From a virus, in the UHGV virus genome UHGV-0191955: a stretch of DNA of 28,411 nt, one strand, 5' to 3'. This document shows positions 1,572 through 28,411 of this stretch, in pieces (the stretch's first letter is position 1; each line of letters starts with the position of its first letter). Below the pieces are notes generated by a model. The model had not been told where the DNA came from. It searched no databases and saw only the letters and a program-made list of their open reading frames with translations. A program made the translations under genes and the position numbers.

Positions 1572-1593
1572 CAATCGAAAAACAGAACGAGAT

Positions 1594-1869: not shown

Positions 1870-1871
1870 CG

Positions 1872-2171: not shown

Positions 2172-2326
2172 CACGATGTCGAACCTCTAAAACGAATGCC
2201 TATGATGTAAAGCGAGCAGGCGGTACGAAGACCTTGAATCGATGTTGTAAATCGAATATGGGAGAGATTGGCTGTTGGAAAAAATCTTTTCGTATCGCCT
2301 GCATTTTTATCATAGACCTGACGACT

Positions 2327-4171: not shown

Positions 4172-4182
4172 ACTATCGCAAT

Positions 4183-5862: not shown

Positions 5863-6162
5863 ATGAGCAGCAGAAAAATGAATCGAAAACAATACAAGCG
5901 TTATCATTCGCCGGTCATCGCCGCCGAGCGCGAGAAAGTCGAGGCGGAACTGTCGGCGATGAATCCGCTCGAACCCGAAGTGCGGCATTTTCTTTCGTTC
6001 GAGGGCTTCGCGGAACTTTATCTCCGTATGCGCGACCTTTATCCGACGCAGCTGGAGGCTTACGAACGGTTGGAGGATTTCTACATCACTATCACCGGCA
6101 AGCGCAGATACTCCGAATTCAGTTCATTCAGGAGGGTGTTGAAGAGGAAACAACCACAATAA
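5863..6162 (+). CDS. hypothetical protein (99 aa)
   Basis: GC-rich ORF co-directional after the terminase. No motif recognised. Confidence 0.4.
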   Translation: MSSRKMNRKQYKRYHSPVIAAEREKVEAELSAMNPLEPEVRHFLSFEGFAELYLRMRDLYPTQLEAYERLEDFYITITGKRRYSEFSSFRRVLKRKQPQ

Positions 6163-6219
6163 TTTTGTAATATTACTAAAAATCATTACCTTTATTAGCA
6201 TTTTATAAAACTTTTCAGT

Positions 6220-10405: not shown

Positions 10406-10409
10406 TATT

Positions 10410-11030
10410 ATGCCATATACTGGAGGACCATTGAATACATTAAATGGGAAAATGGGTATTTCTGCTCCGGAGAATAGTGTACCTGTTATGAAATTAATTC
10501 GCATACATCATCCTAAAAGTAAAGAGGAATTAGTCGAATTAATAAAATGGCATTCTGAAAACAAGTGTGAATGCGGTATTATTAGTAGAGGAACGGTTGA
10601 ACAATTTGGGAAAAATTTATATGAAGCTCAAAAAGCATTTTGGGGAGAATATAAATTTTCATTAGCAATATGCATCCAATGGGAATATGATTTATTTGTT
10701 TTACAATCATTAAAAGGTTCTTTGGTTGAAGATGCTGCTATTAGGACTTTAGAGACCCAATTAGAGCCTGAATATGCTTTTTCAGAAGCAACCGGTTATA
10801 TGGATGAAGAATTGCGAATTGATATTATTTGCAAATATAACAATAGCATTATTGCCGGCATTCAGGTCAAACCTTTAACATTTTTAATGATGAGACGAGA
10901 AATTATTACTTATAATGCTATGGCTAATCAAAAATGGGATAAACCTGTATATTATTTATATTATGACGAAAATGAAAATTTCGTAAATATTGAAGAAGTA
11001 AAGTCTCATTTAAAATCATCGATTCTTTAA
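10410..11030 (+). CDS. candidate restriction endonuclease, C-terminal fragment
   Basis: Begins 4 nt after the previous stop. Removing one T from the T5 run fuses both ORFs into a single ~399-aa frame. Its stop overlaps the methyltransferase stop on the opposite strand. Confidence 0.35.
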   Translation: MPYTGGPLNTLNGKMGISAPENSVPVMKLIRIHHPKSKEELVELIKWHSENKCECGIISRGTVEQFGKNLYEAQKAFWGEYKFSLAICIQWEYDLFVLQSLKGSLVEDAAIRTLETQLEPEYAFSEATGYMDEELRIDIICKYNNSIIAGIQVKPLTFLMMRREIITYNAMANQKWDKPVYYLYYDENENFVNIEEVKSHLKSSIL

Positions 11031-12172
11031 AATGTTAATGCAATCTGCGTTCGGGAAGGAATAGAAATAATACGCTTTCTATTCCCTACTTTTATTTCAG
11101 CAGTGACCGGAATAGTGTCCGCATATTCAGCAGTAATCATGTGATTGTTCCCTCTTATTGCAGATAAATAGACGAACCGCATATCTGTTTCTTGTGAAGT
11201 CATGACCGGCATCTGGAGATGCTCGTTGAAATGTTTGATCTCTTTATTTTGCGTTCGTTGCGAAACGAATTCTTTATGTGCTGCTATTCGATTAGCAATA
11301 ACTTCGTTCATTTGGTCAACCGATGATGAATGAATATTATCGGCTATAATATCTATAAACTTATCATCAATTTCATAACCAATACTATTGCGATTGCTCA
11401 TGATAGATGCAATCGTAGTTGTACCGGTTCCTAAAAAAGGATCCATTACCGTATCTCCTTGCAACGAATACATATTGATTAGACGGTATGGAACTTCCAA
11501 TGGATAGGCTGCACTCCTGTCTCGACTTTCTGCTGATATTTTTTGTTTGGTACCTTTTATATTGTCCCACAAATCGGAAAACCACACATTGCGTTCCTCC
11601 CAAAAGAACGAACTCTCACGGCGTTTCTGTTTGTCTATTGCAGATTTGAATTCGCGTTTACCTCCTTTGCGAAAAATCAAAATCCATTCGTGTTCCAATG
11701 TTACATATGCTCCTGCAGGAAGCATTCCGGACCCCATAAATTTATTTGGAGCATTCGTTTGCTTCCTCCAAATAATGTTTGGAAGATTTACATACCCGTG
11801 AGCGGTGAAATAGTTAATTATACGGGAATGATTGGAGTATAAAGCAAAATTGCCATTGAATGTTCGCGTCGCATCACCGACATTGATACAGACGATTCCA
11901 CCCGGGACAAGGACACGTGTCACCTCATCCCATACTTTATCCAGCTCTTGATGCATTAATTCAAAAGCCGCATCCGGCTGGTTTTCATCAAGGGCATTTG
12001 CAATACAAGGATTTTGTTTGCTTAATATCTCATCCCACATTTGAATCATGGGATATGGCGGAGATGTAACGACTAACTCGACCGAGTTGTCATTAATTTC
12101 TTTCATCTGTTGGGCAGCCCCAGTATATATGCTATGCGTTGTCTTCATAATTTCAAAGCAAAGATAATTCAT
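11027..12172 (-). CDS. DNA methyltransferase, beta-class N4-cytosine/N6-adenine type
   Basis: Motif IV 'VVTSPPYP' near the N-terminus and AdoMet-binding motif I 'VMDPFLGTGTT' near the C-terminus, the circular permutation typical of beta-class amino-methyltransferases. AT-rich. Alternative ATG at 12148. Confidence 0.88.
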   Translation of the reverse strand: MNYLCFEIMKTTHSIYTGAAQQMKEINDNSVELVVTSPPYPMIQMWDEILSKQNPCIANALDENQPDAAFELMHQELDKVWDEVTRVLVPGGIVCINVGDATRTFNGNFALYSNHSRIINYFTAHGYVNLPNIIWRKQTNAPNKFMGSGMLPAGAYVTLEHEWILIFRKGGKREFKSAIDKQKRRESSFFWEERNVWFSDLWDNIKGTKQKISAESRDRSAAYPLEVPYRLINMYSLQGDTVMDPFLGTGTTTIASIMSNRNSIGYEIDDKFIDIIADNIHSSSVDQMNEVIANRIAAHKEFVSQRTQNKEIKHFNEHLQMPVMTSQETDMRFVYLSAIRGNNHMITAEYADTIPVTAEIKVGNRKRIISIPSRTQIALTF

Positions 12173-15655: not shown

Positions 15656-16015
15656 ATGAAAGAGATTATCATTCAAGGCTCTCCGCGTCCGATCCACTTC
15701 GGATTGCGCGCCATCGACGAATTCGTCAAGCAGCGCGGTGCGGAGTTCGGGCAGACGGTCGCTTCGACTGATGCCCTCGGATCGTTGGACAGCATCGTCG
15801 CGCTGACCGCTACGGGACTCAACGAGGGCGCACGGCGTGCCGGCAGCGACCGCCGCTACACCGAAGACGAAGTGTGGGACATCTTCGACGAGGATCCGTC
15901 GCTCATCCTCGCCGTCTCGGGACTCTTCGTCGAGAGCATCGCGCCGCTGACGGATAAGTTGGGCGACCTCTCAAAAAACGGGAAACGCCCGACGACGGGG
16001 AGCCGCAAGCGGTAA
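15656..16015 (+). CDS. tail assembly chaperone (G-like, zero-frame product)
   Basis: 119-aa ORF containing slippery heptamer A_AAA_AAC at 15973-15979. The -1 frame is open from that point to 16338. Confidence 0.6.
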   Translation: MKEIIIQGSPRPIHFGLRAIDEFVKQRGAEFGQTVASTDALGSLDSIVALTATGLNEGARRAGSDRRYTEDEVWDIFDEDPSLILAVSGLFVESIAPLTDKLGDLSKNGKRPTTGSRKR

Positions 16016-16338
16016 CCTACGAGCGATGGTTCGCCATCGCCGTCGGGCAGATGGGACTGGCACCCGAAGCCTTCGAACGGCTGACGCCCGCAGAGTTCAT
16101 CTACGCGTGGCTCGGCTGGGCGAAACACGAGGGCGACAGGCAGCGGCAGGCATGGGAACGCGAACGGTGGGCGGTATGGGTTGCGACCTGCATCCAGCTC
16201 GACCGCAAAGACCGCCGCCCGATGACCGAGATGTTCCCGCTGCCGTGGGAGGGGCTGACGGCTCCCTCCAAACAAGAACCGACCATGCAGGAACGCATGG
16301 AACGAATCGAAGAAATGAAACGATGTATCCGAAAATAA
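15656..16338 (+). CDS. tail assembly chaperone GT-like fusion product via -1 frameshift
   Basis: The -1 frame (ORF-track 16051..16338) has no stop across the overlap with the G-like ORF and would join at the A_AAA_AAC heptamer. This is the canonical G/GT arrangement of tailed phages. Confidence 0.5.
15973..15979 (+). other. candidate -1 programmed ribosomal frameshift slippery site (A_AAA_AAC)
   Basis: Heptamer fits the X_XXY_YYZ rule in the zero frame of the chaperone gene, with the downstream -1 frame open. Confidence 0.5.
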
Positions 16339-16832
16339 CCCTGATTATCCTGACGATCGCCGCTGCCGGCTGCTCTCCGCTCCGAAGTACGCGATCCGAG
16401 CGGCACGAGACGCTCGCTATCACCGACTCGACCCTTACGATGCTGTTCCGGCAGGAGTTCGAGCGGCAGATCGGAACGCTCCGCCGGACCGTCGTGGAGT
16501 TTTATCCGCCGGCGGAATATCCGGAACCGAGCGACGAACGACTGCCGAATCCGACCGATACGCTCCGCGCCGTTCTTCCGCCTCCGAAGATTCCGGCGAC
16601 GAGTGCTTCCCGACAGCCGGTCAAACGCATCTCCTATACCGAGGTATCGATGCAGAATGACCGAACTATCCTTATCGACAGCATTTCGCATAGCCGCATC
16701 AACACGGCAGCCCGCAACGACGTGCAGGAGCAGACCGACGAGCAACCATCCTCCGGTGTCGCGTGGCTCAAATGGGCGACGGCGCTCGTCGCACTGACGC
16801 TTCTGCTGCTCTTATTCCTCAAACTCCGATAA
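16323..16832 (+). CDS. putative lipoprotein with C-terminal membrane anchor
   Basis: ATG at 16323. Signal peptide with lipobox-like 'TIAAAGCS' and a C-terminal hydrophobic helix 'WATALVALTLLLLLFL'. The Arg-rich N-terminal extension in the ORF track was discarded. Confidence 0.55.
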   Translation: MYPKITLIILTIAAAGCSPLRSTRSERHETLAITDSTLTMLFRQEFERQIGTLRRTVVEFYPPAEYPEPSDERLPNPTDTLRAVLPPPKIPATSASRQPVKRISYTEVSMQNDRTILIDSISHSRINTAARNDVQEQTDEQPSSGVAWLKWATALVALTLLLLLFLKLR

Positions 16833-16842
16833 CCGAACCCAT

Positions 16843-17625
16843 ATGGCAAGATTGAAAACTCCGATTTCATACTATGGCGGCAAGCAGATGCTTTTGAAGC
16901 ATATCCTGCCGCTGATTCCCGAACATACGCTCTACACGGAAGCCTTCTGCGGCGGCTGCGCCGTGCTGTTCGCCAAGCCGCCCGCGCAGTGCGAAGTCAT
17001 CAACGACACGAACACCGAATTGGTGAACTTCTACCGCGTGGCGCAGACCCAGTATGCGGCACTCAAGGCGATGATCGACGCGACGCTCCACAGCCGCGAG
17101 ATACACGCGCACGCACGGCATATCAACGAGCATCCGTCGTTCTTCACGCCCGTCGAGCGGGCTTGGGCTGTATGGGTCTGCACGAAGTTGGGCTTCGCCT
17201 CGATGATCGACGGAACGTTCGGCTACGACCGCAGCGGTACGACGACGCTGAAACTCCGCAATGCGAAAGAGGCCTTCACCGAGGAGTTGTGCGGACGCCT
17301 CGGCCGCGTTACGGTCGAGTGCGAGGACGGCATCGATGTCATCCGCCGCTACGACTGTCCCGAGGCGTTCCACTTCGTCGATCCGCCCTATGTCGGCAGC
17401 GACTGCGGACACTACAACGGTACGTTCGACGAGGAGGATTTTTCGAGGCTGCTCGACACGCTTGCAACGGTCGAAGGGAAGTTCATGCTCACGATGTTTC
17501 CGCACGAGAAGATCGAACGCCTCGCCGCCCGGCACGGCTGGACGATCCATCGGCTCGACCGCACCATCACCGCCTCGAAAGTTTCCCGCCGCCGGCAGGA
17601 GGAGTGGATTACGACGAACTACTGA
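16843..17625 (+). CDS. Dam-like N6-adenine DNA methyltransferase (D12 class)
   Basis: 'ISYYGGK' N-terminal motif, 'EAFCGGCAV' AdoMet motif and catalytic 'DPPY' in 'FVDPPYVGS'. No adjacent nuclease. Confidence 0.85.
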   Translation: MARLKTPISYYGGKQMLLKHILPLIPEHTLYTEAFCGGCAVLFAKPPAQCEVINDTNTELVNFYRVAQTQYAALKAMIDATLHSREIHAHARHINEHPSFFTPVERAWAVWVCTKLGFASMIDGTFGYDRSGTTTLKLRNAKEAFTEELCGRLGRVTVECEDGIDVIRRYDCPEAFHFVDPPYVGSDCGHYNGTFDEEDFSRLLDTLATVEGKFMLTMFPHEKIERLAARHGWTIHRLDRTITASKVSRRRQEEWITTNY

Positions 17626-17632
17626 TACCGAC

Positions 17633-18408
17633 GTGGGTACATTCGCTTACGATAACCCCGCTTACATCGCTTCGTGCTCGTTCGGCAAGGATTCGATCGC
17701 TACGATCCTCCTTGCCCTCGAATATGGCGAGCCGCTCGATGCCGCTGTCTTTTCGGAGGTGATGTTCGACCATCGGCGCAATATCAGCGGCGAGATGCCC
17801 GAACACATCGAGTGGATCTATTCGACGGCGATTCCGCGTCTTGCCGCCTTGGGCGTACGGGTCGATGTCGTCCGTTCGGAGAAAGACTATCTTACGTTAT
17901 TCCATACGGTCATAGGGAGCAGTACGCATAAGGGTATGCTGCGCGGCTGGCTCATCGGCGGCAAGTGCTGCGCCAATCGCGACCTCAAAATCCGGCCTAT
18001 ACATCGCTATTATGCCCGTTATCGAGAGCAAGGCATCGTGCAGTACGTCGGCATCGCGGCCGACGAACCGAGACGCCTCGCGCGGATGCAGGAAAAGGGT
18101 ATAACCGTAAAACGAGTCTGCTCGCCAAGTACGGGTACACCGAGGCGGACGCCCGACGCAAGTGCGAAGAATACGGTCTGCTGTCGCCTCTCTACCGCAC
18201 CTCGCATCGGGGCGGTTGCTGGTTCTGCCCCAACTGTCGCATTCCGGTCTTCGCCGAACTGCGCCGCCGCCATCCTGAATTGTGGCGTGAACTGCAACTG
18301 CTCTCGAAGGTCGGAAATAAGTCCTCCGAAGGTTTCAAATACGGGCTGACTTTCGAGGAGGTCGAGCGGCGGATGGATCTCTTCGAACACTCACCGACGC
18401 CATTCTAA
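17633..18408 (+). pseudogene. PAPS-reductase-like (PP-loop) protein, frameshifted
   Basis: N-terminal part in one frame carries PP-loop-like 'CSFGKDS' and 'GIAADEPRRLARM'. C-terminal part in the -1 frame carries 'HRGGCWFCPNC'. The frame switch falls near 18092-18115 in an A4/G3 run. Start assigned to the GTG at 17633. Confidence 0.55.
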
Positions 18409-18410
18409 AC

Positions 18411-18509
18411 AACTGAAAATAAATACGATAATAGTCGCCGAATAACTTGCGTGTTCCGAATAACGATGTTATGTTTGTCATGCAATAAACAACTAAAATA
18501 GAGCGAATT
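18411..18509 (+). promoter_or_regulatory. repeated promoter element, copy A
   Basis: ~100-bp element shared by five loci. TTG at 18447-18449 and TATGTTTG at 18470-18477 with 20-nt spacing. Ends at the ATG of the downstream ORF. Confidence 0.65.
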
Positions 18510-18813
18510 ATGAAAAAGACAGTCATCGTGAAAGGCGAGCGTCGCAAGGTAGAATTCGAGTATCGAGTAATCGATAAATTGGTTAGTTGCCAAAAAGCAA
18601 ACGATGGGATAAGCAGGGGGATGGCTTCCGGTCGAAACCTATTACCACGAAGCCGTTGCCATTATCGACGGTGTAGAATATCCGAGCGTTCGACGCTGGC
18701 ATACCAATGGCGGCAGGTATTCGGAACAGTTCTTTTACAACGGACATTTCTATGATTCGTATAAGAAAATGATCGAGCGCATTCTCGAATCGGCAGACGA
18801 AAGTAACTCTTGA
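18510..18813 (+). CDS. small cassette protein A, apparently frameshifted
   Basis: ORF 18510..18755 reads 'MKKTVIVKGERRKVEFEYRVIDKLV...'. After a G5 run (18616-18620) the +1 frame gives a protein-like 'WLPVETYYHEAVAIIDGVEYPS...ERILESADESNS' to a stop at 18811-18813, while the original frame turns Arg-rich and low-complexity. Confidence 0.45.
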
Positions 18814-18833
18814 ACCTCGATGGAAGCAGATGG

Positions 18834-18863
18834 AAAAACAGGCTCCGTACGGAGCCTGTTTCG
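18834..18863 (+). terminator. perfect palindrome terminator hairpin
   Basis: AAAAACAGGCTCCGT/ACGGAGCCTGTTT: an A-tract, a perfect GC-rich palindrome, then a T-tract, a bidirectional intrinsic-terminator shape, directly after cassette A. Confidence 0.6.
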
Positions 18864-18886
18864 ATCTTTCGCTGTAAGCGTAAATA

Positions 18887-18997
18887 ACTGAAAATAAATA
18901 TGATAATAGTTACCGGATAACTTGTGTGTTCCGAATAACGATGTTATGTTTGCAGTACGATAAACAACTGAATAATAGACGATTAAAACACCCGAAC
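18887..18997 (+). promoter_or_regulatory. repeated promoter element, copy B
   Basis: Same element as copy A with substitutions; contains CTTG...TATGTTTG; followed by ATG at 18998. Confidence 0.65.
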
Positions 18998-19420
18998 ATG
19001 ACAAGTGCACAGGCAAAACAGATCGCATCGAACTATATGCGGCAGCAGAGCGATTATGTATTTTCGGCGGTAACGGTTAAAAGCCTCGCTCCGGCGAACG
19101 GACCAGTCAAGGTGTGGCTCACCACCGAAGACGACTACGGGGACGAACTGATCGTCGAGGTCGAGATGGACCCGCAGTCGAATGAGATCCGCTGGAAGAA
19201 GATCTGCAACACGGGACGCCTATCCGAATATCTGAAGCCGGCTACTCGGATCGATAAACTTTCGGCGGGGCAGCGCTTCCGGCTGCAAGGCGACTGCGTG
19301 GTTTACGAGTTCGTGGACAATGTAAAGGACCGCAGCAATATTCCCTATATCATCCGACGGGCGGACCGATCCGGTTGCGTATCGAGAGTCGGATGGCAGG
19401 AAGTTTTTCCTATCGAGTAA
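18998..19420 (+). CDS. small cassette protein B (140 aa)
   Basis: ATG immediately after promoter copy B. No motif recognised. Confidence 0.55.
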   Translation: MTSAQAKQIASNYMRQQSDYVFSAVTVKSLAPANGPVKVWLTTEDDYGDELIVEVEMDPQSNEIRWKKICNTGRLSEYLKPATRIDKLSAGQRFRLQGDCVVYEFVDNVKDRSNIPYIIRRADRSGCVSRVGWQEVFPIE

Positions 19421-19429
19421 CCGATAACC

Positions 19430-19456
19430 GCGCACCTTGCCGAAAGGCAGGTGCGC
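19430..19456 (+). terminator. stem-loop with GAAA tetraloop
   Basis: GCGCACCTTGCC-GAAA-GGCAGGTGCGC, one bulged T, located after cassette B. Confidence 0.4.
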
Positions 19457-19472
19457 ATAAAACGATACGACG

Positions 19473-19703
19473 ATGAAACTCCGCCGAACGAAAACCGGAA
19501 CTTACACGATTGCTGGTATTACCGCAACTCAATATCGCACCCTTGCGGCAGTGCTTATGACCGCCGATGAGCGTTGCTTCGACGAACAGGACGAGGACGG
19601 CAACTATTACAGCAACGACGATTTCGTCTGCTCGCTCGATGGCGATGAACGGGTGGCTTTGCGACAGGTGTGCGACGCACTTCGGCAACGTGTAAAATAT
19701 TGA
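19473..19703 (+). CDS. small acidic protein (76 aa)
   Basis: ATG ORF between cassettes B and C. Not preceded by the repeated promoter element. Confidence 0.45.
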   Translation: MKLRRTKTGTYTIAGITATQYRTLAAVLMTADERCFDEQDEDGNYYSNDDFVCSLDGDERVALRQVCDALRQRVKY

Positions 19704-19796
19704 AAATAAATGCGATAATAATTAATGGAAAACTTGCGTGTCCCGAATTATGATGCCATCTTTGCAGTGCAATAAACAACTAATATAGAGTGTATT
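19698..19796 (+). promoter_or_regulatory. repeated promoter element, copy C
   Basis: TATTGAAAATAAATGCGATAATA...CTTGCGTG...TTTGCAGTGCAATAAACAACTAATAT. The -7 box is degenerate here (TCTTTG). Confidence 0.55.
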
Positions 19797-20126
19797 ATGA
19801 GTACAAGAGCAAGAATCGGAGTAAGACTTCCAGACGGAAAAATCAAAAGCGTCCATATATGGCGGGACGGACATCCCGATACGTTGGGCGAAACGTTGTC
19901 AGCGCACTACAATACATTGGAATCGGCAATGGCACTGGTCGAACGAGGCAATATAATCGATGTGGAAGCGCGTCTCGAAGAGTGCCGGTTCGAGAAATCG
20001 AATGAACGGTACGATACCGAGCCTCGGGTTTATAAAACGGTTGCCGCCTACGAACGAGAAATCGGAGGAGGATATATGTTACAAATATCTCTATCGGGAC
20101 GGCAAGTGGGAATACCGGGCGGTTGA
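19797..20126 (+). CDS. small cassette protein C (109 aa)
   Basis: ATG immediately after promoter copy C. No motif recognised. Confidence 0.55.
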   Translation: MSTRARIGVRLPDGKIKSVHIWRDGHPDTLGETLSAHYNTLESAMALVERGNIIDVEARLEECRFEKSNERYDTEPRVYKTVAAYEREIGGGYMLQISLSGRQVGIPGG

Positions 20127-20202
20127 TTGGTAACCGACTTCCGATCGTAAGGAACGAATGCTCCGAGCCTCCGACGGGAGGCTTCCCCTCGTTTCGTCCA
20201 TT

Positions 20203-20247
20203 CAGTTGTTTATTGCGACCGGAGCCGTGCATCGTGTACGGCTCCGG
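20203..20247 (+). terminator. CAGTTGTTTATTGC box plus 10-bp GC hairpin (CCGGAGCCGT/ACGGCTCCGG), copy 1
   Basis: Perfect stem followed by TTT. The 14-mer is the reverse complement of GCAATAAACAACTG found in the cassette leaders. Confidence 0.5.
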
Positions 20248-20321
20248 TTTCCGTTCAAAGGCGGGACATTGTTTCTGCAACGGATCTTCGGCAGCATGTA
20301 TATTTACCATATGGAATAGGC

Positions 20322-20440
20322 TTGATAAATAGTTGGTATTCTTTGAATTAAGTTACCGATAAACTTGCGTGTCCCGAATAATGATGTTATGTTTGCAGTG
20401 CAATAAACGATTGAACTGCAATCTATTAAACGACTCGATT
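20322..20440 (+). promoter_or_regulatory. repeated promoter element, copy D
   Basis: 5' half diverged; retains CTTGCGTGTCCCGAATAATGATGTTATGTTTGCAGTGCAATAAACGATTG; followed by ATG at 20441. Confidence 0.6.
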
Positions 20441-20659
20441 ATGAATACTGCGAATCGAAAAAGAACGGAAATCGACGCCGAACTCGACCGGTTGGAGGTC
20501 GAATTCGAGAAGAACCGCAAGGAGATGCAACGCCTTGCCGACGAGAACAGACGTGCCGGCAACCGCTATGGCGAATTATCGAATGCGAATCACGACATCA
20601 ACAACCGGATCCTCACATTGCTCGCAGAGCGTTGGGAATCGGAAGAGACGACCGATTGA
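20441..20659 (+). CDS. small coiled-coil cassette protein D (72 aa)
   Basis: ATG after promoter copy D. Charged, heptad-like sequence 'IDAELDRLEVEFEKNRKEMQRLADENRR'. Confidence 0.5.
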   Translation: MNTANRKRTEIDAELDRLEVEFEKNRKEMQRLADENRRAGNRYGELSNANHDINNRILTLLAERWESEETTD

Positions 20660-20675
20660 CGAAACGAGAGACGGA

Positions 20676-20703
20676 CCCCGCCGAGAAATATTCCTCGGCG
20701 GGG
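20676..20703 (+). terminator. 10-bp perfect stem hairpin (CCCCGCCGAG/CTCGGCGGGG)
   Basis: Read directly; lies after cassette D. Confidence 0.45.
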
Positions 20704-20734
20704 TAAAACCCGAAACCGGAAAACACATAAAGAG

Positions 20735-20926
20735 ATGAAAACGATGAATGCAAAGGTAGGCGACAAGATTCGCATTATCCATCTTCGCGACGAGGACAGC
20801 CGTTACGACGGCAAGGAGGGAACGATCGAGTTCATCGACTCGCTCGGACAACTGCACGGCACATGGGGCGGGTTGGCAGTCATTCCCGAAGTCGATCGGT
20901 TCGTAATTATCGAGAAAGCGGAATAA
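20735..20926 (+). CDS. small protein (63 aa)
   Basis: ATG ORF without the repeated promoter element. Alternative ATG at 20744. Confidence 0.45.
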   Translation: MKTMNAKVGDKIRIIHLRDEDSRYDGKEGTIEFIDSLGQLHGTWGGLAVIPEVDRFVIIEKAE

Positions 20927-20977
20927 TCGCCTGCAACGATAATGCTCGGTTCCGCCATCTTTTTATAGCATCTAATC

Positions 20978-21076
20978 TATTGAAAATAAATACGATAATA
21001 GTCGCCGAACAACTTGCATGTTCCGAATAACGATGTTATGTTTGCAGTACGATAAACAACTAAAAAAGAGCGAATT
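20978..21076 (+). promoter_or_regulatory. repeated promoter element, copy E
   Basis: Closest copy to A. Contains CTTGCATG...TATGTTTG; followed by ATG at 21077. Confidence 0.65.
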
Positions 21077-21364
21077 ATGAGAACGAACATCGAACGGTTT
21101 TTAGAGAGATTCCCGAAGAATGCCACGAATTGGGCGCAGGCGACGGACGAGGTGCGCGATATGGCTCACAAGGCTCGCGAATTGTTGGAAGAGTACGAAG
21201 GCGTAATCGTCGAACCGGTAAATTTCCGGACTATCGAGACCCCGGCCGAGTGGAATACCGAAGGTCGCGAGTTCATCCTGACGAATTTCGATCGCATGGC
21301 GGATAGGACCAAAGAGCGTTTCTACGACTACTTCCGCGAGTGGTTCGAAGGCGAAGAGGAATAG
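21077..21364 (+). CDS. small acidic cassette protein E (95 aa)
   Basis: ATG immediately after promoter copy E. No motif recognised. Confidence 0.55.
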   Translation: MRTNIERFLERFPKNATNWAQATDEVRDMAHKARELLEEYEGVIVEPVNFRTIETPAEWNTEGREFILTNFDRMADRTKERFYDYFREWFEGEEE

Positions 21365-21372
21365 ACCGACGC

Positions 21373-21409
21373 ACGGATGCTCCCCGTTCAAGCTGCGGGG
21401 AGCATCCGT
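21373..21409 (+). terminator. 14-bp perfect stem hairpin (ACGGATGCTCCCCG/CGGGGAGCATCCGT)
   Basis: Read directly; 9-nt loop; directly after cassette E. Confidence 0.5.
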
Positions 21410-21471
21410 CCTAACCCCGGAGTAGGGTTGCACACGTCGTCTCTTTCGATAGGAAATCTATCGTGCTCCAT

Positions 21472-21515
21472 CAGTTGTTTATTGCAGCCGGAGCCGCATC
21501 ATGTGCGGCTCCGGC
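21472..21515 (+). terminator. CAGTTGTTTATTGC box plus 12-bp GC hairpin (GCCGGAGCCGCA/TGCGGCTCCGGC), copy 2
   Basis: Second copy of the element at 20203-20247, with the same 14-mer and a related stem. Confidence 0.5.
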
Positions 21516-21589
21516 AATCTCATTATAGAGGGACTTTGTTTCAGCGATGAGGCCTTTTGCCATTTTACCTTTATTCCCGCGACAAAGGT

Positions 21590-24454
21590 ATGGCGATTTT
21601 TGGTCTGAAATATTACGCAGACCTTCGCTCGAAGTACAAGGGCGTCTTGTGGCGCGTAGAGATTTCGGAGCGGGGGTACGCAGGTCCGTCGGAGGAGATG
21701 ACCTTCGACGGCGGTGCACCGTTGCAGATCACGTGGGAGAAACGGGGCGACGAGTTCTACGTGCCGGTCAAGGCTTCGGAGGCGACCATCAACATCCTCT
21801 GCAAGGAGAATTTCCATTACCTGGCTCTGTTCACTTCCGATCCCCGTTATTTTCGCGTCTCGATTTTCCGCAATCGGCAGCTCTATTGGCGGGGCTACGT
21901 CACCTCCGACCTCTACTCCGAGAACTTCACGGCTCCGCCTTATACCGTCACGATCAAGGCCGTGGACGGCTTCAATCTCTTGTCGAGCATTCCGTTCCGC
22001 GACCTCTTACATATCGGCATCGCGGGCAGACGATCGCTGTGGGAACTGCTCTCCTCCTGCATCGACCTGTTGGAGTTGGACCTCGATACGGCGGACTGGA
22101 TGGATCTGTATGCCGAAGGGATGGACGAGAACGCCTCTCCGCTTCGTCAAACCTATATCGACCTCGAACGGCTCTACTACGTCTACGAGCAGCCTACCTA
22201 TCGCGACATCCTCGAACTGTGCCTGCGTCCGTTCGCCGGGCAAATCTTCCAGTCGAACGGAGCCCTGCATATCCGCCGCGCCGTGTCGCTCTACCGAACT
22301 GCCCGTCCCGTGAATTTCTACCGCGTCGGCACGGAGTATCCCGTCGGACGGATCGTTACGGGCAGCGGGCTGCGGCTCGTGATCCATACCGGTGCGCAGG
22401 TCGTCGCGTCGGCGGCACGCGAGCGCATCGACGGTATGTGGACGGGCGACCTGCACATCGAGGGAAGTTCGACGCTCGACATCGTCCCTGCGCTGCGCAA
22501 GGTCTCGGTCGATGTAAAGAACAAGAGCCTCGACAACCTGATCGCCCGCATCGGGTTCTACGATCCCGACGCTTGGATGGATCCGCACGGCTTCGTCTCC
22601 GTGAAGAGCGGGGAGGAACTCTATTTCAGCGGCGAGGATGCCTATCGGAGTGAGGAGGTCGTAACTCGGGGGTTTCCCGTCGAGCAGTGCAACTTCCCGC
22701 TCGTATGGGAGTTCGGGTTGCAGACCTACCATCGGGAGTGGGGACTGGGCATTTACCGCCCGAACGAAAGCGTCGATGTCGCGGTGCATTACGGCGTCCG
22801 CATCGTCGGCGAAAAGGCGACATACAGCCTCACCGAGAGCGGCTCGTGGGTGCAGTCTTCCGACGGGGAGATCGCGAGTACGGTCAAGACCGGCAACGAG
22901 CAGAATATGAAGATCGAGATCGACGGCATCCCCTGCGACGGCGAGTGGCGGTTCTTCATCCGGCAGACGCTCATCGGCAAGATCACGACCTATACCGACC
23001 GTTTCGGCAATCCGAGCGGCCGCACCTCGGGCTATCAGGAGAGCGCCGCGTTCCGCAAGATGACGCTCTCGATCGATGCGGGCGACAGCTACGACAAGGG
23101 ATTGCGCTACGAATCGCTCGTCGATCCCGCGAACAATGTCGATATGTCCGTAACGCTTCCCGTGAGCGATATTCCCGCCATTCCGAACGACCGGCTGCTC
23201 TATGCGCTCTACTACCTCGATGTCGCCGGCAATCCCACGCGCATCTGGCATACGAAAGGTCGGAACGACTACGACACGCTGGTCGGTCATATCGTGCAGG
23301 GAGCATTGCGGTACAAGCAGCTGCCGAGCCGGCGCATCACGGGCGAGATCTTCACGGGGCAGCATATCGATATGAATACGGTGGTTCGGGACGACAAGTT
23401 CCTGAACGCCGCCTATTACCTGAACTCCATCGAACTGAATGCCCTCGACGACTCCTACAACAGCGAACTCACGGAGATGCCGCATCTGCTCGCGACGGAG
23501 AGACCGCCGGAGGGCGACGACTGCATAGCGGTCGCAACGCTGTCCTTCACGGTCGGCAAGGCGATCCGCTGCCTGAACCGGCTGCTGCTCCAGTCCGCCG
23601 ATAAAAAGACGGTCTATGCCTTCGACACCGCTACGCGGCAGGTGCGGGAGATCTACCGCAGCACGACGTCCTTCGAGATGTACGAAGCGGACGAGGGATT
23701 CGTCGCGGTGGATGGGAAAGAGGTCCGCTACCTCGACTATCGCGGTACGGTCGAACGGATATATACCCCGCCGGAGGAGTACCGCAACGTCGCGACCTAC
23801 ATGGACGGGTATATCCATATCCTGAAATCTTACCGGCAGTATATCGGTCCGCGGGGCGGCAATGCCGGCGGACGCAGCGCCCGCACGGCAGAGGACGAGG
23901 ATCCGAACTACCGCACCTATCGTTACCTCTCGCGCCCGGAGTGCAAGTACGTTTCGCCCGACGCCTCGACCGGCTATCGCGGACGGGGATATGCCTACGA
24001 GGGTACGCCGATGTCGGGTGCGATCCTCGCCCTGCGGCGCACGGAAAATACGATCGTCGTGAACACCTCGCATGGCGCCTATCTGCACGACAAACGGTTC
24101 CACCAGCCCTGCAAGATGCTGCAATTCGCTGCGGGCGAGCAGATCGTCACCGTCTCCGACAACTATATCGGCATCAACGCCGACGATATGCTGTGGTTCT
24201 ACCGGCGGGATTCGATTACCGAGCGGACGCTGCTCCGGCGGTTGGGACGCTGGGCGGATCATGCCGACCATACGATGAGCGAGGTCGTGCACTCCTACGA
24301 CGACGGCATCTTCATCCGGAACTTCCGCGACGACACGACGACCGACGTTCGGAACGTCGCCGGCTGGGGCGAGACCATCATGGGATTATTCTTCATCTAC
24401 GGCGACCTCTATATCGTGCGCGAACGGGCGATTTACAAATTCATTCCTGAATAA
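21590..24454 (+). CDS. large hypothetical protein (~954 aa), possibly virion-associated
   Basis: Long GC-rich ORF with phage-like codon usage. ATG at 21590 preferred over the TTG at 21557. No motif recognised. The long minus-strand ORF opposite it is treated as antisense noise. Confidence 0.55.
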   Translation: MAIFGLKYYADLRSKYKGVLWRVEISERGYAGPSEEMTFDGGAPLQITWEKRGDEFYVPVKASEATINILCKENFHYLALFTSDPRYFRVSIFRNRQLYWRGYVTSDLYSENFTAPPYTVTIKAVDGFNLLSSIPFRDLLHIGIAGRRSLWELLSSCIDLLELDLDTADWMDLYAEGMDENASPLRQTYIDLERLYYVYEQPTYRDILELCLRPFAGQIFQSNGALHIRRAVSLYRTARPVNFYRVGTEYPVGRIVTGSGLRLVIHTGAQVVASAARERIDGMWTGDLHIEGSSTLDIVPALRKVSVDVKNKSLDNLIARIGFYDPDAWMDPHGFVSVKSGEELYFSGEDAYRSEEVVTRGFPVEQCNFPLVWEFGLQTYHREWGLGIYRPNESVDVAVHYGVRIVGEKATYSLTESGSWVQSSDGEIASTVKTGNEQNMKIEIDGIPCDGEWRFFIRQTLIGKITTYTDRFGNPSGRTSGYQESAAFRKMTLSIDAGDSYDKGLRYESLVDPANNVDMSVTLPVSDIPAIPNDRLLYALYYLDVAGNPTRIWHTKGRNDYDTLVGHIVQGALRYKQLPSRRITGEIFTGQHIDMNTVVRDDKFLNAAYYLNSIELNALDDSYNSELTEMPHLLATERPPEGDDCIAVATLSFTVGKAIRCLNRLLLQSADKKTVYAFDTATRQVREIYRSTTSFEMYEADEGFVAVDGKEVRYLDYRGTVERIYTPPEEYRNVATYMDGYIHILKSYRQYIGPRGGNAGGRSARTAEDEDPNYRTYRYLSRPECKYVSPDASTGYRGRGYAYEGTPMSGAILALRRTENTIVVNTSHGAYLHDKRFHQPCKMLQFAAGEQIVTVSDNYIGINADDMLWFYRRDSITERTLLRRLGRWADHADHTMSEVVHSYDDGIFIRNFRDDTTTDVRNVAGWGETIMGLFFIYGDLYIVRERAIYKFIPE

Positions 24455-24464
24455 GTGCGAAACT

Positions 24465-24839
24465 ATGGAAACACTATCCATCATTCTGAACTTCATTCTC
24501 GCCAGCGGACTGGCGGGAACGATCCTTTTTTTCAACGCAAAGAAGCGCAAGGAGAACGCGGACGCCGACTCCGCCGAATTAGCAAACACGGAGAAGGTCG
24601 TGGCGATCCAGTCCGAGCAGATCACGCGGCTGGACGGGCGCGTGGAGAAACTCGAAGAGAAGGTCGGCAAACTCGAAATCATCATCGAGCACAAGGACGT
24701 GGAGATCGACCGCAGCCGCATCGTCATCCGGCAGGCGTACAAATGCGAAACGCCGCCCGAACATTGTCCGGTCTTGCTCAAAAGAGCCGAGTTGGAACGC
24801 AGGCGCAAAGAGAGCGACGAAAATAACCGAAAATCATAA
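24465..24839 (+). CDS. membrane protein with N-terminal helix and coiled coil (holin/spanin-like architecture)
   Basis: Hydrophobic helix 'LSIILNFILASGLAGTILFF' followed by heptad-like 'RLDGRVEKLEEKVGKLEIIIEHKD'. A functional call is not possible from sequence alone. Confidence 0.45.
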   Translation: METLSIILNFILASGLAGTILFFNAKKRKENADADSAELANTEKVVAIQSEQITRLDGRVEKLEEKVGKLEIIIEHKDVEIDRSRIVIRQAYKCETPPEHCPVLLKRAELERRRKESDENNRKS

Positions 24840-24970
24840 AGCAATGAGCAGAGGATTGAGTAATTGTAACCGACGCCGCGGAGCGAGAGCAGAACCCGCT
24901 TGCGGGCTCTGCCGAGCCGCAAGGAGGAAACGATTGCTACAATGACATTCCAGAACGAATAACAGATATT

Positions 24971-25393
24971 ATGAACGAGAAAACTTTGCCGAGAGGGATG
25001 CGCAATCGCAACCCGGGCAATATCCGCCGATCGGCGACGAAGTATCTGGGCGAAGTTGCGCCCTCGCGCGATGCCGCATTCAAGCAGTTCGAGACGATGG
25101 CGTGGGGCTACCGCGCGATGTTCGTGCTGCTGGACTCCTACTCCCGTAAAGGTTATCGGACAATCCGGCAAATGATCTCGCGCTACGCTCCGCCCATCGA
25201 GAACCATACCGAGAACTATATTCGTTGCGTGTCCGAATGGTCGGGCATCTGCGCCGACGAACCATTGGATACGCAGGCGGGCGAAACGATGATCCCTATC
25301 GTGGCGGCTATGTCGCGCATGGAAAACGGCTGTCCGACGGTACTATCGGACGTCGAGGCAGGCTGGACGCTTTATCTGCAACACAAACCCTAA
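24971..25393 (+). CDS. hypothetical protein (140 aa)
   Basis: ATG ORF directly upstream of the tape measure gene. Contains 'NRNPGNIRRS'. Function not recognised. Confidence 0.45.
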   Translation: MNEKTLPRGMRNRNPGNIRRSATKYLGEVAPSRDAAFKQFETMAWGYRAMFVLLDSYSRKGYRTIRQMISRYAPPIENHTENYIRCVSEWSGICADEPLDTQAGETMIPIVAAMSRMENGCPTVLSDVEAGWTLYLQHKP

Positions 25394-25399
25394 ACAGCC

Positions 25400-27757
25400 A
25401 TGTCCCGGAGAATCGCCGATTTACTTATAAAGATCGGAGCCGACTCGTATGAGTTCCAGCAGAAGGCGCAGCAGGTCGAGAAAGGGCTCGGCTCGCTCGA
25501 AAAGAAGCTGACCTCCGTCGGCAAGTCGCTCTCGTTGAAACTCTCCGCGCCCCTTGCGGCATTGGGCGGCGTGTCGCTGCACCTGGCCGATGTGCAGGCC
25601 AAAGCCGAAGCGAAGGTGCAGCAGGCGCTCAAGGTTACGAATCAGGCCGTCGGTTACAACTTCCGGCAGTTGGCCGACTACGCTTCGGAGTTGCAGGGCA
25701 AGACGATTTTCGGCGACGAGACGATCCTCGACAAATCCACCGCCCGCCTGTTGGCTTTTACCAATATCACGGGCGAAAACTTCAAGCGCACGCAGGCGTT
25801 GGCATTGGACCTCGCCACGGCGTTGGAGATGGATTTAGGTTCGGCGTCGTTGCAATTGGGCAAGGCGCTCTCCGATCCCACGACGAAGCTCTCGTCGCTG
25901 TCGCGTGCCGGCATCACCTTCTCCAAGGAGCAGACGGAAGTAATCAAGAAACTCGCCGAGACGGGCGACATAGCCAAGGCACAGGCGATGATCCTCGACG
26001 AATTGGAGCGCAAGTTCGGCGGGCAGGCCGAAGCCGCCGCACGGACGGGACTCGGAGCCGTGCAGCAACTCAAGAATGCGTGGGGCGACTTCCTCGAACG
26101 GATCGGTGCGGCCATCATGCCTTTCGCGACGAAGATAGCAGGTGCGCTCTCGACAGTCGTACAGATGCTGCAATCGATGTCGCCGGCGATGATGCAGACG
26201 ATCGTCGTTGTAGCGGGGCTGGTCGCAGCGGTCGGTCCCCTTTCGCTCGGAATCGGTGCCGTGATCAAGGTGCTGCCGATGCTGGCGGCGGGATTTACGG
26301 CATTGCTGTCGCCCGTCGGGTTGATTATGGCGGCGGTCCTCGCGCTCGGTGCGGCGTTCGCCTATGCCCGCATCCAAAAGCAGAAGATGATCGACGAGAT
26401 GGCCGAGGTCGAATCGCTCGACGAGCTCGAACGCAAGTTGCAGGAGAATATCGCCGAGCAGAAAGAGATCATCGCCACGACGACCAAGACACGGATGGTT
26501 CCGAATTTCGGGGGATTAGTCGCCGGTTTTACTTTGCAGAAAGTACCCGACGAATCGAAACTCGCACCCCTGCGTAAGGAGTACGACCTGCTGACGGCTG
26601 CTATCGAGAAGAAACGCGAAACGGAGAAGAAGGCGGCCGAGGCGCAGGCCGAACTGGACAAGGTAATGGACGAAGCACGCAAGCAGACCGAGGAGTTGAT
26701 GAAGTCCATCGCCGGAACCAACGCGCAGACGGAACAAAGCACGGGCATCATCGGTAAATTGCAGGCGCGGATCGAGGCTCTCGAAAAGAAGAAACTGCTG
26801 CCCGAATCGACCGTCGAGGATATCGCCGCGGCGAACGCCGAGATCGAGAAGCTGCAAAAAGAGCTGGAGCGGATCAGGAATATCAAGCCCGAAGACCTGG
26901 AACCCGTCGTCAAGATGGACGGTATTTTGCCCGAAGGCTTCGAGTTAGAGTTGCCGGCGCCGAAACTCAAAATGGGCGATCTGAAACCCGTAGCATTGCA
27001 ATATGCGCAGCAGATGCAGACGATATTCGGCGCGGTGCGCGAAGGGTTGTACGGCTGGGCGGACGACAACAGCGCATACTTGCAGGAGCACGTCGCCGAT
27101 ACGGTCTCGATGGTTGAGAATTACACGACGGCACTGACGGCGAAGGGCTGGTCGTTCTCGGCAGCATTGGAGCATGTCCACGCCACGATTGCGGAGGTGA
27201 TGACGCGCTTCGATCAGCAGGTGTCGAAGTTTATGGCCGACAGCATCGTCGCAGCGGCGGAGGCTATCGGGCAGATCATTGCCGGCGATTTGGGATTCGG
27301 AGGGCTGATGAAAGCGATCCTGACGCAGTTCGCCTCTTTTCTGAAAAATATCGGCTCGCAACTCATCGAGTTCGGCGTGATGATCATCGCCTTCAAGTCT
27401 GCACTGAAATCCGTCCTCGCCAATCCGTGGGCGGCGATCGCCATCGGAGCAGCGATGGTCGCAGCGGCAACCGTGATGACGGCGCTCATCAACAAGAATG
27501 CGGAGAAGAGTGTGCCGGCATTGGCCAACGGCGGTCTGGCATACGGTCCCACCTATGCGATGGTCGGAGACAACCCCAATGCCGGCACGGATCCCGAAGT
27601 CATCGCACCGCTGTCGAAGTTGCAGGCGATGCTCCCGACGGGTGGCAGCCCGCAGAATCTACGAATAACCCTCGGCGGTCAATTGACTGCCAAGGGTCGG
27701 GACTTGGTGTATGTTCTCGGAAAAGAGAACTTCAAGTCACAGGTGTTGGGTGGATGA
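25400..27757 (+). CDS. tail tape measure protein
   Basis: 785 aa. Ala/Leu/Gln-rich coiled-coil N-terminus, conserved tape-measure core 'LGKALSDPTTKLSSLSRAGITFSKEQTEVIKKLAETGDIAKAQAMILDELERKFGG', central hydrophobic segments, and a Gly/Ala-rich C-terminus. Confidence 0.85.
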   Translation: MSRRIADLLIKIGADSYEFQQKAQQVEKGLGSLEKKLTSVGKSLSLKLSAPLAALGGVSLHLADVQAKAEAKVQQALKVTNQAVGYNFRQLADYASELQGKTIFGDETILDKSTARLLAFTNITGENFKRTQALALDLATALEMDLGSASLQLGKALSDPTTKLSSLSRAGITFSKEQTEVIKKLAETGDIAKAQAMILDELERKFGGQAEAAARTGLGAVQQLKNAWGDFLERIGAAIMPFATKIAGALSTVVQMLQSMSPAMMQTIVVVAGLVAAVGPLSLGIGAVIKVLPMLAAGFTALLSPVGLIMAAVLALGAAFAYARIQKQKMIDEMAEVESLDELERKLQENIAEQKEIIATTTKTRMVPNFGGLVAGFTLQKVPDESKLAPLRKEYDLLTAAIEKKRETEKKAAEAQAELDKVMDEARKQTEELMKSIAGTNAQTEQSTGIIGKLQARIEALEKKKLLPESTVEDIAAANAEIEKLQKELERIRNIKPEDLEPVVKMDGILPEGFELELPAPKLKMGDLKPVALQYAQQMQTIFGAVREGLYGWADDNSAYLQEHVADTVSMVENYTTALTAKGWSFSAALEHVHATIAEVMTRFDQQVSKFMADSIVAAAEAIGQIIAGDLGFGGLMKAILTQFASFLKNIGSQLIEFGVMIIAFKSALKSVLANPWAAIAIGAAMVAAATVMTALINKNAEKSVPALANGGLAYGPTYAMVGDNPNAGTDPEVIAPLSKLQAMLPTGGSPQNLRITLGGQLTAKGRDLVYVLGKENFKSQVLGG

Positions 27758-27766: not shown

Positions 27767-28411
27767 TTATTCCGAAAATAATTTTTCAAATTCAGTAAAA
27801 TCATTTACGATAAGCCCACGAGGGTTGTTTTGCTCCCATTTTAATAGATTGGGTTCTGTTTTTCCGGTATTTCTCGAGTTAATATCTCTACATATATATT
27901 CACTATATTTCTGGAAACTCTCAATTTGTTTAAGATCAGGATAGCTGGCAAAAAATCGCATATTTGTTTCCCAATCCCGCATCGATCTTATACCGGTAGC
28001 GAATCCGTTATTTGCTAATTGGATATTAACATTTGCAGTATGGGATAGATTTTGAATTTCCGGAAATCTATTAATAATATGTCTTCCTAATATCAAACAA
28101 TGAGGAATTCCGCAAAATGCAAAATTATTTTTCTGTTTCCATGCATTAAACAGAAAATATTCGATATGCGGCATCTCGTCGATCGGATAAATTTCGGCGT
28201 AAAAACAATTGCTGAAATGATCTCGAATTAAAAAATTGACAATGTGACGTTTGCCGGTTCTCTCATAATTATTCCAATTAATATCGAATTTTTTTAGTTG
28301 ATATTTGATCTCTCCATTTTTTAACAAATAATAATTTTGAGAAATCGACATATTTAATTGATGTACTTGATTGGGGTAGTCGCTTTTGTATTTAAAATGA
28401 TAGCCGATCAT
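27767..28411 (-). CDS. hypothetical protein, AT-rich, possibly 5'-partial at window edge
   Basis: 214 codons on the minus strand running to the last base of the window, convergent with the tape measure gene. Sharp drop in GC. No motif recognised. Confidence 0.5.
   Translation of the reverse strand: MIGYHFKYKSDYPNQVHQLNMSISQNYYLLKNGEIKYQLKKFDINWNNYERTGKRHIVNFLIRDHFSNCFYAEIYPIDEMPHIEYFLFNAWKQKNNFAFCGIPHCLILGRHIINRFPEIQNLSHTANVNIQLANNGFATGIRSMRDWETNMRFFASYPDLKQIESFQKYSEYICRDINSRNTGKTEPNLLKWEQNNPRGLIVNDFTEFEKLFSE

Follow-up and report, generated by a model that had tools for sequence, protein, structure and literature searches.

The virus genome UHGV-0191955, the whole 28,411-nt stretch of which was analyzed here (hereafter, the window), poses the question of what role is played by an element of ~100 nt that recurs between positions 18409 and 21076 in five direct copies (A to E), all on the + strand and each ending at the ATG of a small open reading frame (ORF; ATGs at 18510, 18998, 19797, 20441, and 21077). 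A sequence-only reading had treated these copies as five promoters under the control of a single regulator, which would recognize an operator built of paired 9-mers and a short palindrome. Based on comparisons with homologous loci, we propose that the five elements are probably versions of one portable promoter-leader cassette of temperate Alistipes phages, which doubles as a set of recombination points. The host RNA polymerase, together with its primary sigma factor, would start transcription independently at each cassette, so that each small accessory gene would form its own transcription unit bounded by hairpins, with those in the 3′ flanks of the genes limiting read-through.

Probable promoter-leader cassettes in Alistipes phages

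Homologous loci were retrieved with patterns drawn from the core of the element and by a second search anchored on GATGnnATnTTTGnnnTnnnATAAAC, which contains neither of the 9-mers; additional copies were then collected by searching a profile built from the window copies over all fetched loci. The profile search recovered 141 matches (125 distinct) from 58 loci; these always form co-oriented arrays, in which 2-7 copies follow one another at intervals of 450-1300 bp. Pattern scans place the family in IMG/VR viral contigs and in genomes, and nearly all its loci belong to Alistipes phages or prophages; the genome loci with more than one pattern match all come from Alistipes metagenome-assembled genomes. 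A megablast search with 16800-25400 against 50,697 GenBank phage records returned no match and hence no annotated relative there. Constraint was measured as mean bits per position in 45 non-redundant representatives (<85% identical), to which the counts and bit values below refer.

In their work of 2000, Bayley et al. reportedly placed a -33 TTG or TTTG ~19-21 nt upstream of the -7 element. The published consensus for Bacteroides combines a -33 site with a -7 site of the form TANNTTTGY (PMC12632263). In the window, TTG is followed by a 20-nt gap and TATGTTTG in copies A, B, D, and E, and at the same spacing by CATCTTTG in copy C. Across the family, TTG is present in 45/45 representatives, in the context CTTG rather than TTTG, and the positions diagnostic of a Bacteroidota -7 element are retained to a similar degree (A in 44/45, TT in 44-45/45, and G in 43/45). 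With one exception, the 125 distinct copies have exactly 20 nt between TTG and TA, and apart from one copy there are no indels between TTG and TTTG. These findings support the reading of the elements as putative Bacteroidota-type promoters, in which a 20-nt spacer separates a -33 TTG from a -7 TAnnTTTG and from which the transcript is predicted to start within CAGTGCAATAAA, at a conserved ATAAA. Ten promoter-like sites of the Bacteroidota type were found in the 28-kb window, five of which are the cassettes. Two other promoter types were considered and set aside: a scan for promoters and terminators of the Escherichia coli sigma-70 type, which is uninformative for this host, gave counts close to shuffle expectation, and a minus-strand promoter of the extracytoplasmic function sigma factor type (GGAAC...) would have its -10 element in the variable upstream region of the repeat, while all the genes lie on the + strand.

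Conservation along the element is distributed in blocks. The longest conserved stretch is a 16-nt block, ACTTGCGTGTTCCrAA (AC-TTG-CGTGTTCC-rAA), that includes the -33 TTG; it averages 1.71 bits/position, and A28, T30, T31, G32, C33, T37, and A43 are invariant in it. The -7 region, GATGnnAynTTTG, which is of the TG-extended kind, averages 1.50 and the ATAAA at the predicted start 1.82 bits/position, against a background of 0.68 for both the AT-rich upstream region and the rest of the leader and 0.7-0.8 in the patches beside the blocks. The parts of the cassette follow one another as an AT-rich UP-like stretch, the -33 TTG within the 16-nt block, a 4-nt variable patch, the -7 box, the predicted start at ATAAA, and an A-rich leader of 30-45 nt ending at the ATG; the AT-rich stretch upstream and the A-rich leader downstream are found in all five window copies.

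It might be asked whether such similarity simply reflects an intergenic segment that was recently duplicated in tandem or gene-converted, with no sequence-specific function behind it. The copies within this phage are indeed 75-90% identical over ~100 nt, and the recombination between copies documented below would homogenize them. However, invariant columns stand sharply beside near-random ones, conserved columns fall on the -33 and -7 positions known from promoters, at their canonical spacing, and the block pattern persists in divergent loci in which the cassette genes are only 66-81% identical to those of the window. Since these genes have diverged to that extent, the blocks appear to be under selection rather than merely copied recently, and we regard a pure duplication trace as extremely unlikely.

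The individual copies in the window vary on this common plan. Cassette A (18409-18509) extends from the stop codon of a gene for a phosphoadenosine phosphosulfate (PAPS)-reductase-like protein to the ATG of gene A, with the TTG (18447-18449) in the conserved block ACTTGCGTGTTCCGAA (18445-18460), the -7 box GATGT+TATGTTTG at 18465-18477, and a leader box GCAATAAACAAC at 18482-18493. Cassette B (18881-18997) has a long leader up to the ATG at 18998 and a TTGTGTG variant of the block (18920-18935; TTG at 18922-18924), followed by the -7 region (18940-18952) and leader box (18957-18968). In cassette C (19693-19796) the TTG (19734-19736) and block (19732-19747) precede the variant -7 region GATGCCATCTTTG (19752-19764) and the leader box (19769-19780). 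Cassette D (20330-20440) differs from the other copies in its AT-rich upstream part (TTTGAATTAAG), which is followed by the block (20363-20378; TTG at 20365-20367), the -7 region (20383-20395), and the leader box GCAATAAACGAT (20400-20411). Cassette E (20975-21076), the final one of the array in the window and in close relatives, carries a TTGCATG variant of the block (21012-21027; TTG at 21014-21016), with the -7 region at 21032-21044 and the leader box at 21049-21060.

Cassettes as recombination points

The arrays occupy a recurrent slot, which is ordered as tail chaperones, a segment of ~500 nt, a D12-class methyltransferase gene, sometimes the PAPS-reductase-like gene, the array, and tail genes. 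Wherever the flank is recognizable, the array lies downstream of the methyltransferase or PAPS-reductase-like gene, and where the sequence extends far enough the tail gene g965 lies downstream of it. Within this slot the genes behind the cassettes come and go between relatives (individual loci are given L numbers). Gene A, which the window shares with L126, L006, L003, and L131, is missing from at least eight relatives (L008, L009, L087, L001, L002, L007, L181, and L144); gene C is absent from L006, L001, and L007. In the distant arrays L005, L016, L049, and L017, the shared genes are reordered and accompanied by other orphan genes.

The junctions left by these changes fall inside the cassettes. 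Through GATGTTATGTTTG, which brings it to the -7 box, the first cassette of L009 is identical to window cassette A; from CAGTACGAT onward it equals cassette B, and gene A is missing; similarly, a cassette of L006 is C-type through GCAATAAACAA and D-type from TTGAACTGC, and gene C is missing. In the family at large, each -7 subtype (TTATG or CCATC) is found with each leader type and with each upstream type, giving all four combinations in either case. Since the positions of the two crossovers within the conserved core differ, they point to homologous rather than site-specific exchange. Taken together, the comparison of loci shows the ~100-nt cassettes to be recombination points, at which the flanked genes are deleted, inserted, and reordered; because the cassettes are so alike, homologous recombination between them shuffles the genes that they flank.

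Two specialized forms of rearrangement were considered and rejected. The leader boxes and the complementary anti-leader boxes described below do not fit the RYYYAAC / GTTRRRY pattern of integron attC-like sites, and the crossovers differ in place. As for an inverton, inverted repeats do flank promoter D as well as genes C and E (promoter D lies between the anti-leader box at 20203-20216 and its inverted partner at 20400-20411), but all 141 matches are co-oriented within their loci, the cassette genes keep their orientation in all loci, and no inversion between leader and anti-leader boxes was seen in them.

Relationship to known repeated elements

The closest parallel is offered by the promoter-early stem-loop (PeSL) elements of T4-type phages, a class of mobile regulatory cassette (Arbiol et al. 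2010 PMC2839356; Comeau et al. 2014 PMC4122927). Both families provide a strong host-type promoter with an AT-rich region upstream; in the Alistipes phages this takes the form of a conserved intergenic unit of ~100 bp that also includes the translation start region. Both are clustered in a hyperplastic region, where each copy directly precedes an orphan gene, and in both, relatives gain or lose a flanked gene and are left with one chimeric cassette that has the crossover inside it (for PeSL, PMC2839356 Figs 3, 5 as described). In the Alistipes arrays such junctions are seen in the L009 A/B and L006 C/D chimeras and in the mosaic sub-blocks. The two systems differ in that PeSL has a sigma-70 promoter with -35 and -10 boxes, resides in lytic T4-like myoviruses, and contains an integral GC-rich stem-loop, whereas the elements described here have the Bacteroidota -33 and -7 boxes, belong to a temperate siphovirus-like element with an integrase, and are associated with hairpins in the 3′ flanks of genes, at some junctions only. 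Further, unlike PeSL, the Alistipes cassettes possess the additional conserved 16-nt -33 block and, in one lineage, a 3′ box complementary to the leader. Hence, PeSL is the closest functional analogue of the Alistipes cassettes and not a sequence homologue or a relative by descent.

Other comparisons are more partial. The morons of Hendrix and colleagues are units of promoter, gene, and terminator between the late genes of temperate phages (following the summary in PMC2839356). The cassettes fit this concept in being independent units of non-essential genes in the tail region of temperate phages with hairpins downstream; classical morons differ in having unrelated promoters and no conserved flanks, whereas here one shared cassette supplies the homology for exchange. 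Mycobacteriophages possess 13-bp stoperators (cluster A) and start-associated sequences, SAS and ESAS (cluster K) (PMC3203893), which are likewise short co-oriented motifs placed before many unrelated genes and conserved in relatives, suggesting a common factor. However, the stoperators are dispersed through the genome, including the inside of operons, and bind the phage repressor, and the SAS motifs lie at translation starts (PMC3203893), whereas the Alistipes repeat is a whole promoter and is confined to one island.

The Alistipes family is therefore a new and well-populated example of repeated promoter cassettes doubling as recombination modules. It extends cassette-mediated shuffling, described in lytic T4-type phages of Proteobacteria, to temperate phages, another bacterial phylum, and another promoter grammar, and helps explain how orphan accessory genes turn over in such islands. 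Although abundant, the phages of gut Bacteroidota have transcription signals that are almost uncharacterized; in this context, the family represents a strongly constrained promoter-leader module with 125 natural variants, which makes it a candidate expression part for Alistipes and related bacteria.

A conserved block beyond the basal promoter

Several points weigh against the reading of the elements as cassettes served by the host polymerase alone and shuffled by recombination. Promoter activity, the start sites, and the timing of expression (lysogen, early, or late) are all deduced rather than observed. The presence or absence of a cassette gene can be read equally as a deletion or an insertion. 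The core-derived patterns and the window-built profile used in retrieval inflate the apparent conservation of the core. The integral stem-loop that characterizes PeSL is lacking here, the only counterpart being a weak, unconserved AT-rich 5-bp palindrome. Finally, 13 conserved nucleotides around the TTG (CGTGTTCCrAA + AC) fall outside the known Bacteroidota sigma-A consensus, and because the block exceeds this consensus, a model with only the host RNA polymerase leaves the best-conserved part of the element unexplained.

The 16-nt block is longer than contact with a sigma factor at -33 needs, and it is the only credible site for any shared trans-acting factor. One could imagine that a phage or host protein binds ACTTGCGTGTTCCrAA, overlapping the -33 site, at all the cassettes and independently of the 9-mers. 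As a repressor, such a protein could silence the island in one phase of the life cycle; as an activator, it could work with RNA polymerase at -33. The latter would recall the middle promoters of T4, which combine a MotA box near -30 with a good downstream -10-type element and are found before many small genes. The likeness lies in a phage-specific conserved box near -30, with the host -33 TTG retained inside it in the present case; the MotA box is thus a possible mechanistic analogue of the -33 block, though dependence on an activator would be purely hypothetical, and no homologue of MotA or AsiA was identified. Binding of a factor to the block would be compatible with the cassettes also serving as recombination points.

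The length and degree of conservation (1.71 bits/position over 16 nt, the longest conserved stretch and well beyond the TTG/TTTG consensus) speak for such a factor, as does the distribution of the block: outside the five cassettes, neither the block nor the element occurs anywhere in the window, and the other promoter-like sites of the window are without it. In addition, near-identical relatives encode a 522-amino-acid (aa) protein with multiple helix-turn-helix (HTH) domains that could read tandem sites. This protein (L183:2982-4550) combines an N-terminal HTH_28 domain with about six HTH repeats resembling sigma region 4, and in both L183 and L184 its gene is found shortly before the replication genes, in a region beyond the window. 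On the other hand, the asymmetric block has neither a clear dyad nor an internal repeat, and RNA polymerase contacts can by themselves account for conserved spacer-proximal sequence in strong promoters. Among the sequences covered, which include few of the corresponding regions of distant relatives, matches to the multi-HTH protein were found in only the two closest relatives, though the promoter family is far wider. Nor was an autoregulatory site seen in the replication-region loci of the related contigs L183-L187, all of them partial genomes: the block and the element are absent from each, including the 4-6 kb that precede the replication genes, a stretch present only in L183 and L184. More generally, the additional sites expected of a repressor operator, either at the promoter of the regulator or dispersed, were not found in the window or in the partial genomes L183-L187. 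We accordingly hold a dedicated block-binding factor to be a tentative alternative, distinctly less probable than the portable cassette read by the host polymerase. The broader claim of the earlier reading, namely, common control of all five promoters, nevertheless remains plausible in outline because the shared sequence exceeds the basal boxes; it is the identification of the operator with the 9-mers and palindrome that fails.

Two other sources of control were discarded. The cassette genes themselves have no DNA-binding domain in Pfam or PHROGs, and several of their products are acidic or coiled-coil proteins. Control through methylation by the D12 methyltransferase was not favored, as the core is without GATC, and the conserved GATG is not a known Dam-type site. 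As a separate observation, L183 is the contig IMGVR_UViG_3300029098_000117, whose replication protein is 98% identical to that of the window, and in its region 625-4550 (with the same genes in L184) a bAvd-like gene and a reverse transcriptase, together suggestive of a diversity-generating retroelement, adjoin the gene for the 522-aa protein.

The paired 9-mers and the palindrome

The operator had been described as a 9-mer recurring on both sides of CTTG in every copy. The 9-mer CCGAATAAC occurs exactly at 18438, 18456, 18931, and 21023, with one mismatch as CCGGATAAC (18913), CCGAATAAT (20374), and CCGAACAAC (21005), and with two mismatches as CCGATAAAC (20356) and CCGAATTAT (19743). Thus, in cassette A the pair lies at 18438-18446 and 18456-18464, in B at 18913-18921 and 18931-18939, in D at 20356-20364 and 20374-20382, and in E at 21005-21013 and 21023-21031, with 18 bp between starts. 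This pairing is genuine in four of the five copies but breaks down in C, which retains the downstream variant (19743-19751), whereas the upstream position (19725-19733) is occupied by the unrecognizable ATGGAAAAC, with four mismatches. The palindrome ATAAC-GAT-GTTAT is likewise perfect in A (18460-18472), B, and E but reduced to 4/5 pairs in D and lost in C. A related sequence, CCGATAACC, does precede the hairpin at 19430-19456, as had been pointed out; this site (19421-19429) overlaps the end of gene B and is indistinguishable from chance. Counted over the window with up to one mismatch, the 9-mer has 20 matches, compared to 8.5 +/- 2.9 in shuffled sequence (0/100 shuffles reach 20). Nine of the 20 lie inside the five elements, and the 11 outside are near expectation; since those nine are copies of a single 100-nt repeat, the enrichment does not constitute independent evidence.

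The conservation in homologues, on which the earlier reading had itself staked the operator, is largely lacking for both the paired 9-mers and the palindrome. The first seven nucleotides of the upstream 9-mer average 0.70 bits/position, i.e., background, and the TAAC half of the downstream one 0.79; of the latter 9-mer only CCrAA is conserved (1.49 bits), and that as the 3′ end of the 16-nt block. The downstream 9-mer of a given copy recurs upstream of its TTG (<=2 mismatches) in 8/45 representatives, and the 5-bp palindrome is intact in just 2/45, so that neither a dyad nor repeated half-sites are conserved in the homologous promoters. Drift of the upstream 9-mer (CCTGATAAC, GCTGAATAAC, GTCGAATAAC, and CCTAACAAC) is evident even among phages >90% identical to the window, in which the downstream one is fixed. 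As the retrieval bias noted above also favors the 9-mers, their variability is a conservative result.

An operator for one regulator at all five promoters, composed of two CCGAATAAC-like direct repeats and ATAAC-GAT-GTTAT, is therefore very unlikely. In its favor, the layout is real in A, B, and E and approximate in D, matches to the upstream 9-mer (<=2 mismatches) do occur in 13/37 divergent homologues versus 0.9 in letter shuffles, largely on account of conserved columns at -6 (A) and -2/-1 (AC), and the multi-HTH protein of the close relatives could in principle read direct repeats. Against this stand the lack of the upstream 9-mer in copy C, the family-wide variability described above, and the 18-bp spacing, a non-integral number of helical turns that would place the two 9-mers on different faces of the helix. 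In terms of the portable cassette, the upstream 9-mer is fast-evolving sequence beside the conserved AC-TTG and the downstream 9-mer half conserved block (CCrAA) and half variable spacer, and the pairing is confined to this phage lineage. When one genome is read by itself, repeats peculiar to a lineage and lying within a repeated promoter can thus pass for an operator; it is the homologues that show where the constraint lies.

Cassette genes, hairpins, and the anti-leader box

The genes that the cassettes would drive, all on the + strand, fall in the family as a whole into 14 families, essentially none of which has a known function and among which the only family matches are DUF4314, phrog_1987, and a marginal DUF4259. 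Gene A (18510-18813) is an orphan of 101 aa in relatives and is broken in the window. Cassette B is followed by two genes (18998-19703): B (18998-19420; 140 aa) and the acidic B2 (19473-19703; 76 aa), neither with a family match; the hairpin at 19430-19456 separates them, and B2 has no promoter of its own. Gene C (19797-20133), of 110 aa in relatives, belongs to phrog_1987, a family of unknown function. Genes D and D2 (20441-20926) comprise a 72-aa coiled-coil orphan (D, 20441-20659), which is the most widespread of the cassette genes, and a DUF4314 protein (D2, 20735-20926), with a hairpin between them (20676-20703). Gene E (21077-21364) codes for an acidic orphan of 95 aa. All the hairpins lie in gene 3′ flanks (18836-18862, 19430-19456, 20217-20249, 20676-20703, 21373-21409, and 21486-21515); the first of them, AAACAGGCTCCG-TA-CGGAGCCTGTTT on the + strand, is terminator-like and lies between gene A and cassette B, and cassettes A, C, and E have no hairpin directly upstream.

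A further shared feature is found in the 3′ flanks of two of these genes. In that of gene C, the + strand sequence CAGTTGTTTATTGC (20203-20216), an exact reverse complement of the leader box, abuts the GC-rich terminator-like hairpin at 20217-20249. This anti-leader box recurs at 21472-21485 in the flank of gene E (21373-21515, + strand), where it is predicted to be single-stranded between the hairpin at 21373-21409 and the others further 3′, including the terminator-like one at 21486-21515 (fold z-score, -7.7). It is kept in about ten relatives and also in the divergent L005 (near 9802), in which the hairpin sequence is entirely different, and is absent from several divergent arrays. In computed duplexes the box pairs with every cassette leader at -12 to -20 kcal/mol; pairing specific to its own cassette was rejected, as it pairs about equally with all the leaders. 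The anti-leader box could mediate pairing of the 5′ and 3′ ends of an mRNA, serve as the seed of a small RNA, or form a protein site used in both orientations.

Combining this box with the 16-nt block, the island might be viewed as a two-layer regulon. In the first layer, a phage-family-specific activator (acting with the host sigma factor) or repressor would read the -33 block; in the second, single-stranded CAGUUGUUUAUUGC, lying between hairpins where the transcripts of genes C and E end, would pair with the leader sequence GCAAUAAACAACUG, either in cis, joining the 5′ and 3′ ends, or in trans, as a small RNA derived from the 3′ untranslated region. Were it so, leader pairing would set the stability or translation of all the cassette orphan genes, which may have anti-defense functions. 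We consider this combined scheme unlikely. A search of Rfam with 16000-22000 gave nothing at E<=1, and no tRNA or tmRNA genes were found.

Genomic context of the array

On the left, the array is bordered on the + strand (16843-18408) by the D12-class N6-adenine DNA methyltransferase gene (16843-17625) and the PAPS-reductase-like gene (17630-18408) and on the right by the gene for a 965-aa protein matching virion structural protein PHROGs (21557-24454, + strand). Four indels of 1 nt are shared by none of the relatives: deletions at ~18094 in the PAPS-reductase-like gene and at ~18597 and ~18617 in gene A and an insertion at ~20064 in gene C. The intact products in relatives are of 259 aa (PAPS-reductase-like), 101 aa (gene A), and 110 aa (gene C). 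These window-specific indels are either errors of sequencing or assembly, one of them falling in a run of A, or signs that a prophage has begun to decay.

The window codes for O- and DnaC-like replication proteins, HNH, a tyrosine integrase, small and large terminase subunits, portal, protease, major capsid, major tail, and tape measure proteins, and a lysozyme-like protein, indicating that it is a temperate siphovirus-like phage or prophage. The order of genes in 15656-27757 is unusual in that ~9 kb separate the two ORFs in the tail-chaperone position (15656-16338; no family match, named for their position only) from the tape-measure gene downstream (25400-27757); the gap is occupied by the accessory island, the 965-aa structural protein, a small membrane protein, and the lysozyme-like gene. 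Between the tail-chaperone-position genes and the methyltransferase, an ORF at ~16323-16832 combines a lipoprotein-type signal at its N terminus (MYPKITLIILTIAAAGCS) with a transmembrane helix at its C terminus, which by eye is the layout of a unimolecular spanin.

Two low-GC islands lie elsewhere in the window. The region 9827-12172 (35-39% GC versus ~58%), between the head protease and major capsid genes, contains MjaI-like restriction endonuclease ORFs (9827-10405 and 10389-11030) and a minus-strand DNA methyltransferase (11027-12172), and has the appearance of a restriction-modification system that entered the head module. The other, at 6139-7838 (~35% GC), separates the terminase from the portal genes; it has its own promoter-like site of the Bacteroidota type at 6139, as well as two ORFs, of which one (194 aa) is unknown and the other (345 aa) shows a weak HATPase_c/kinase-like match. 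The end of the window has a low-GC minus-strand ORF (27767-28411) with no family match. Between the integrase and small terminase genes lie ~420 nt of non-coding, partly AT-rich sequence (3280-3700), and a minus-strand promoter-like site is present in this gap at 3708 (TTGCGACC...TATCTTTG).

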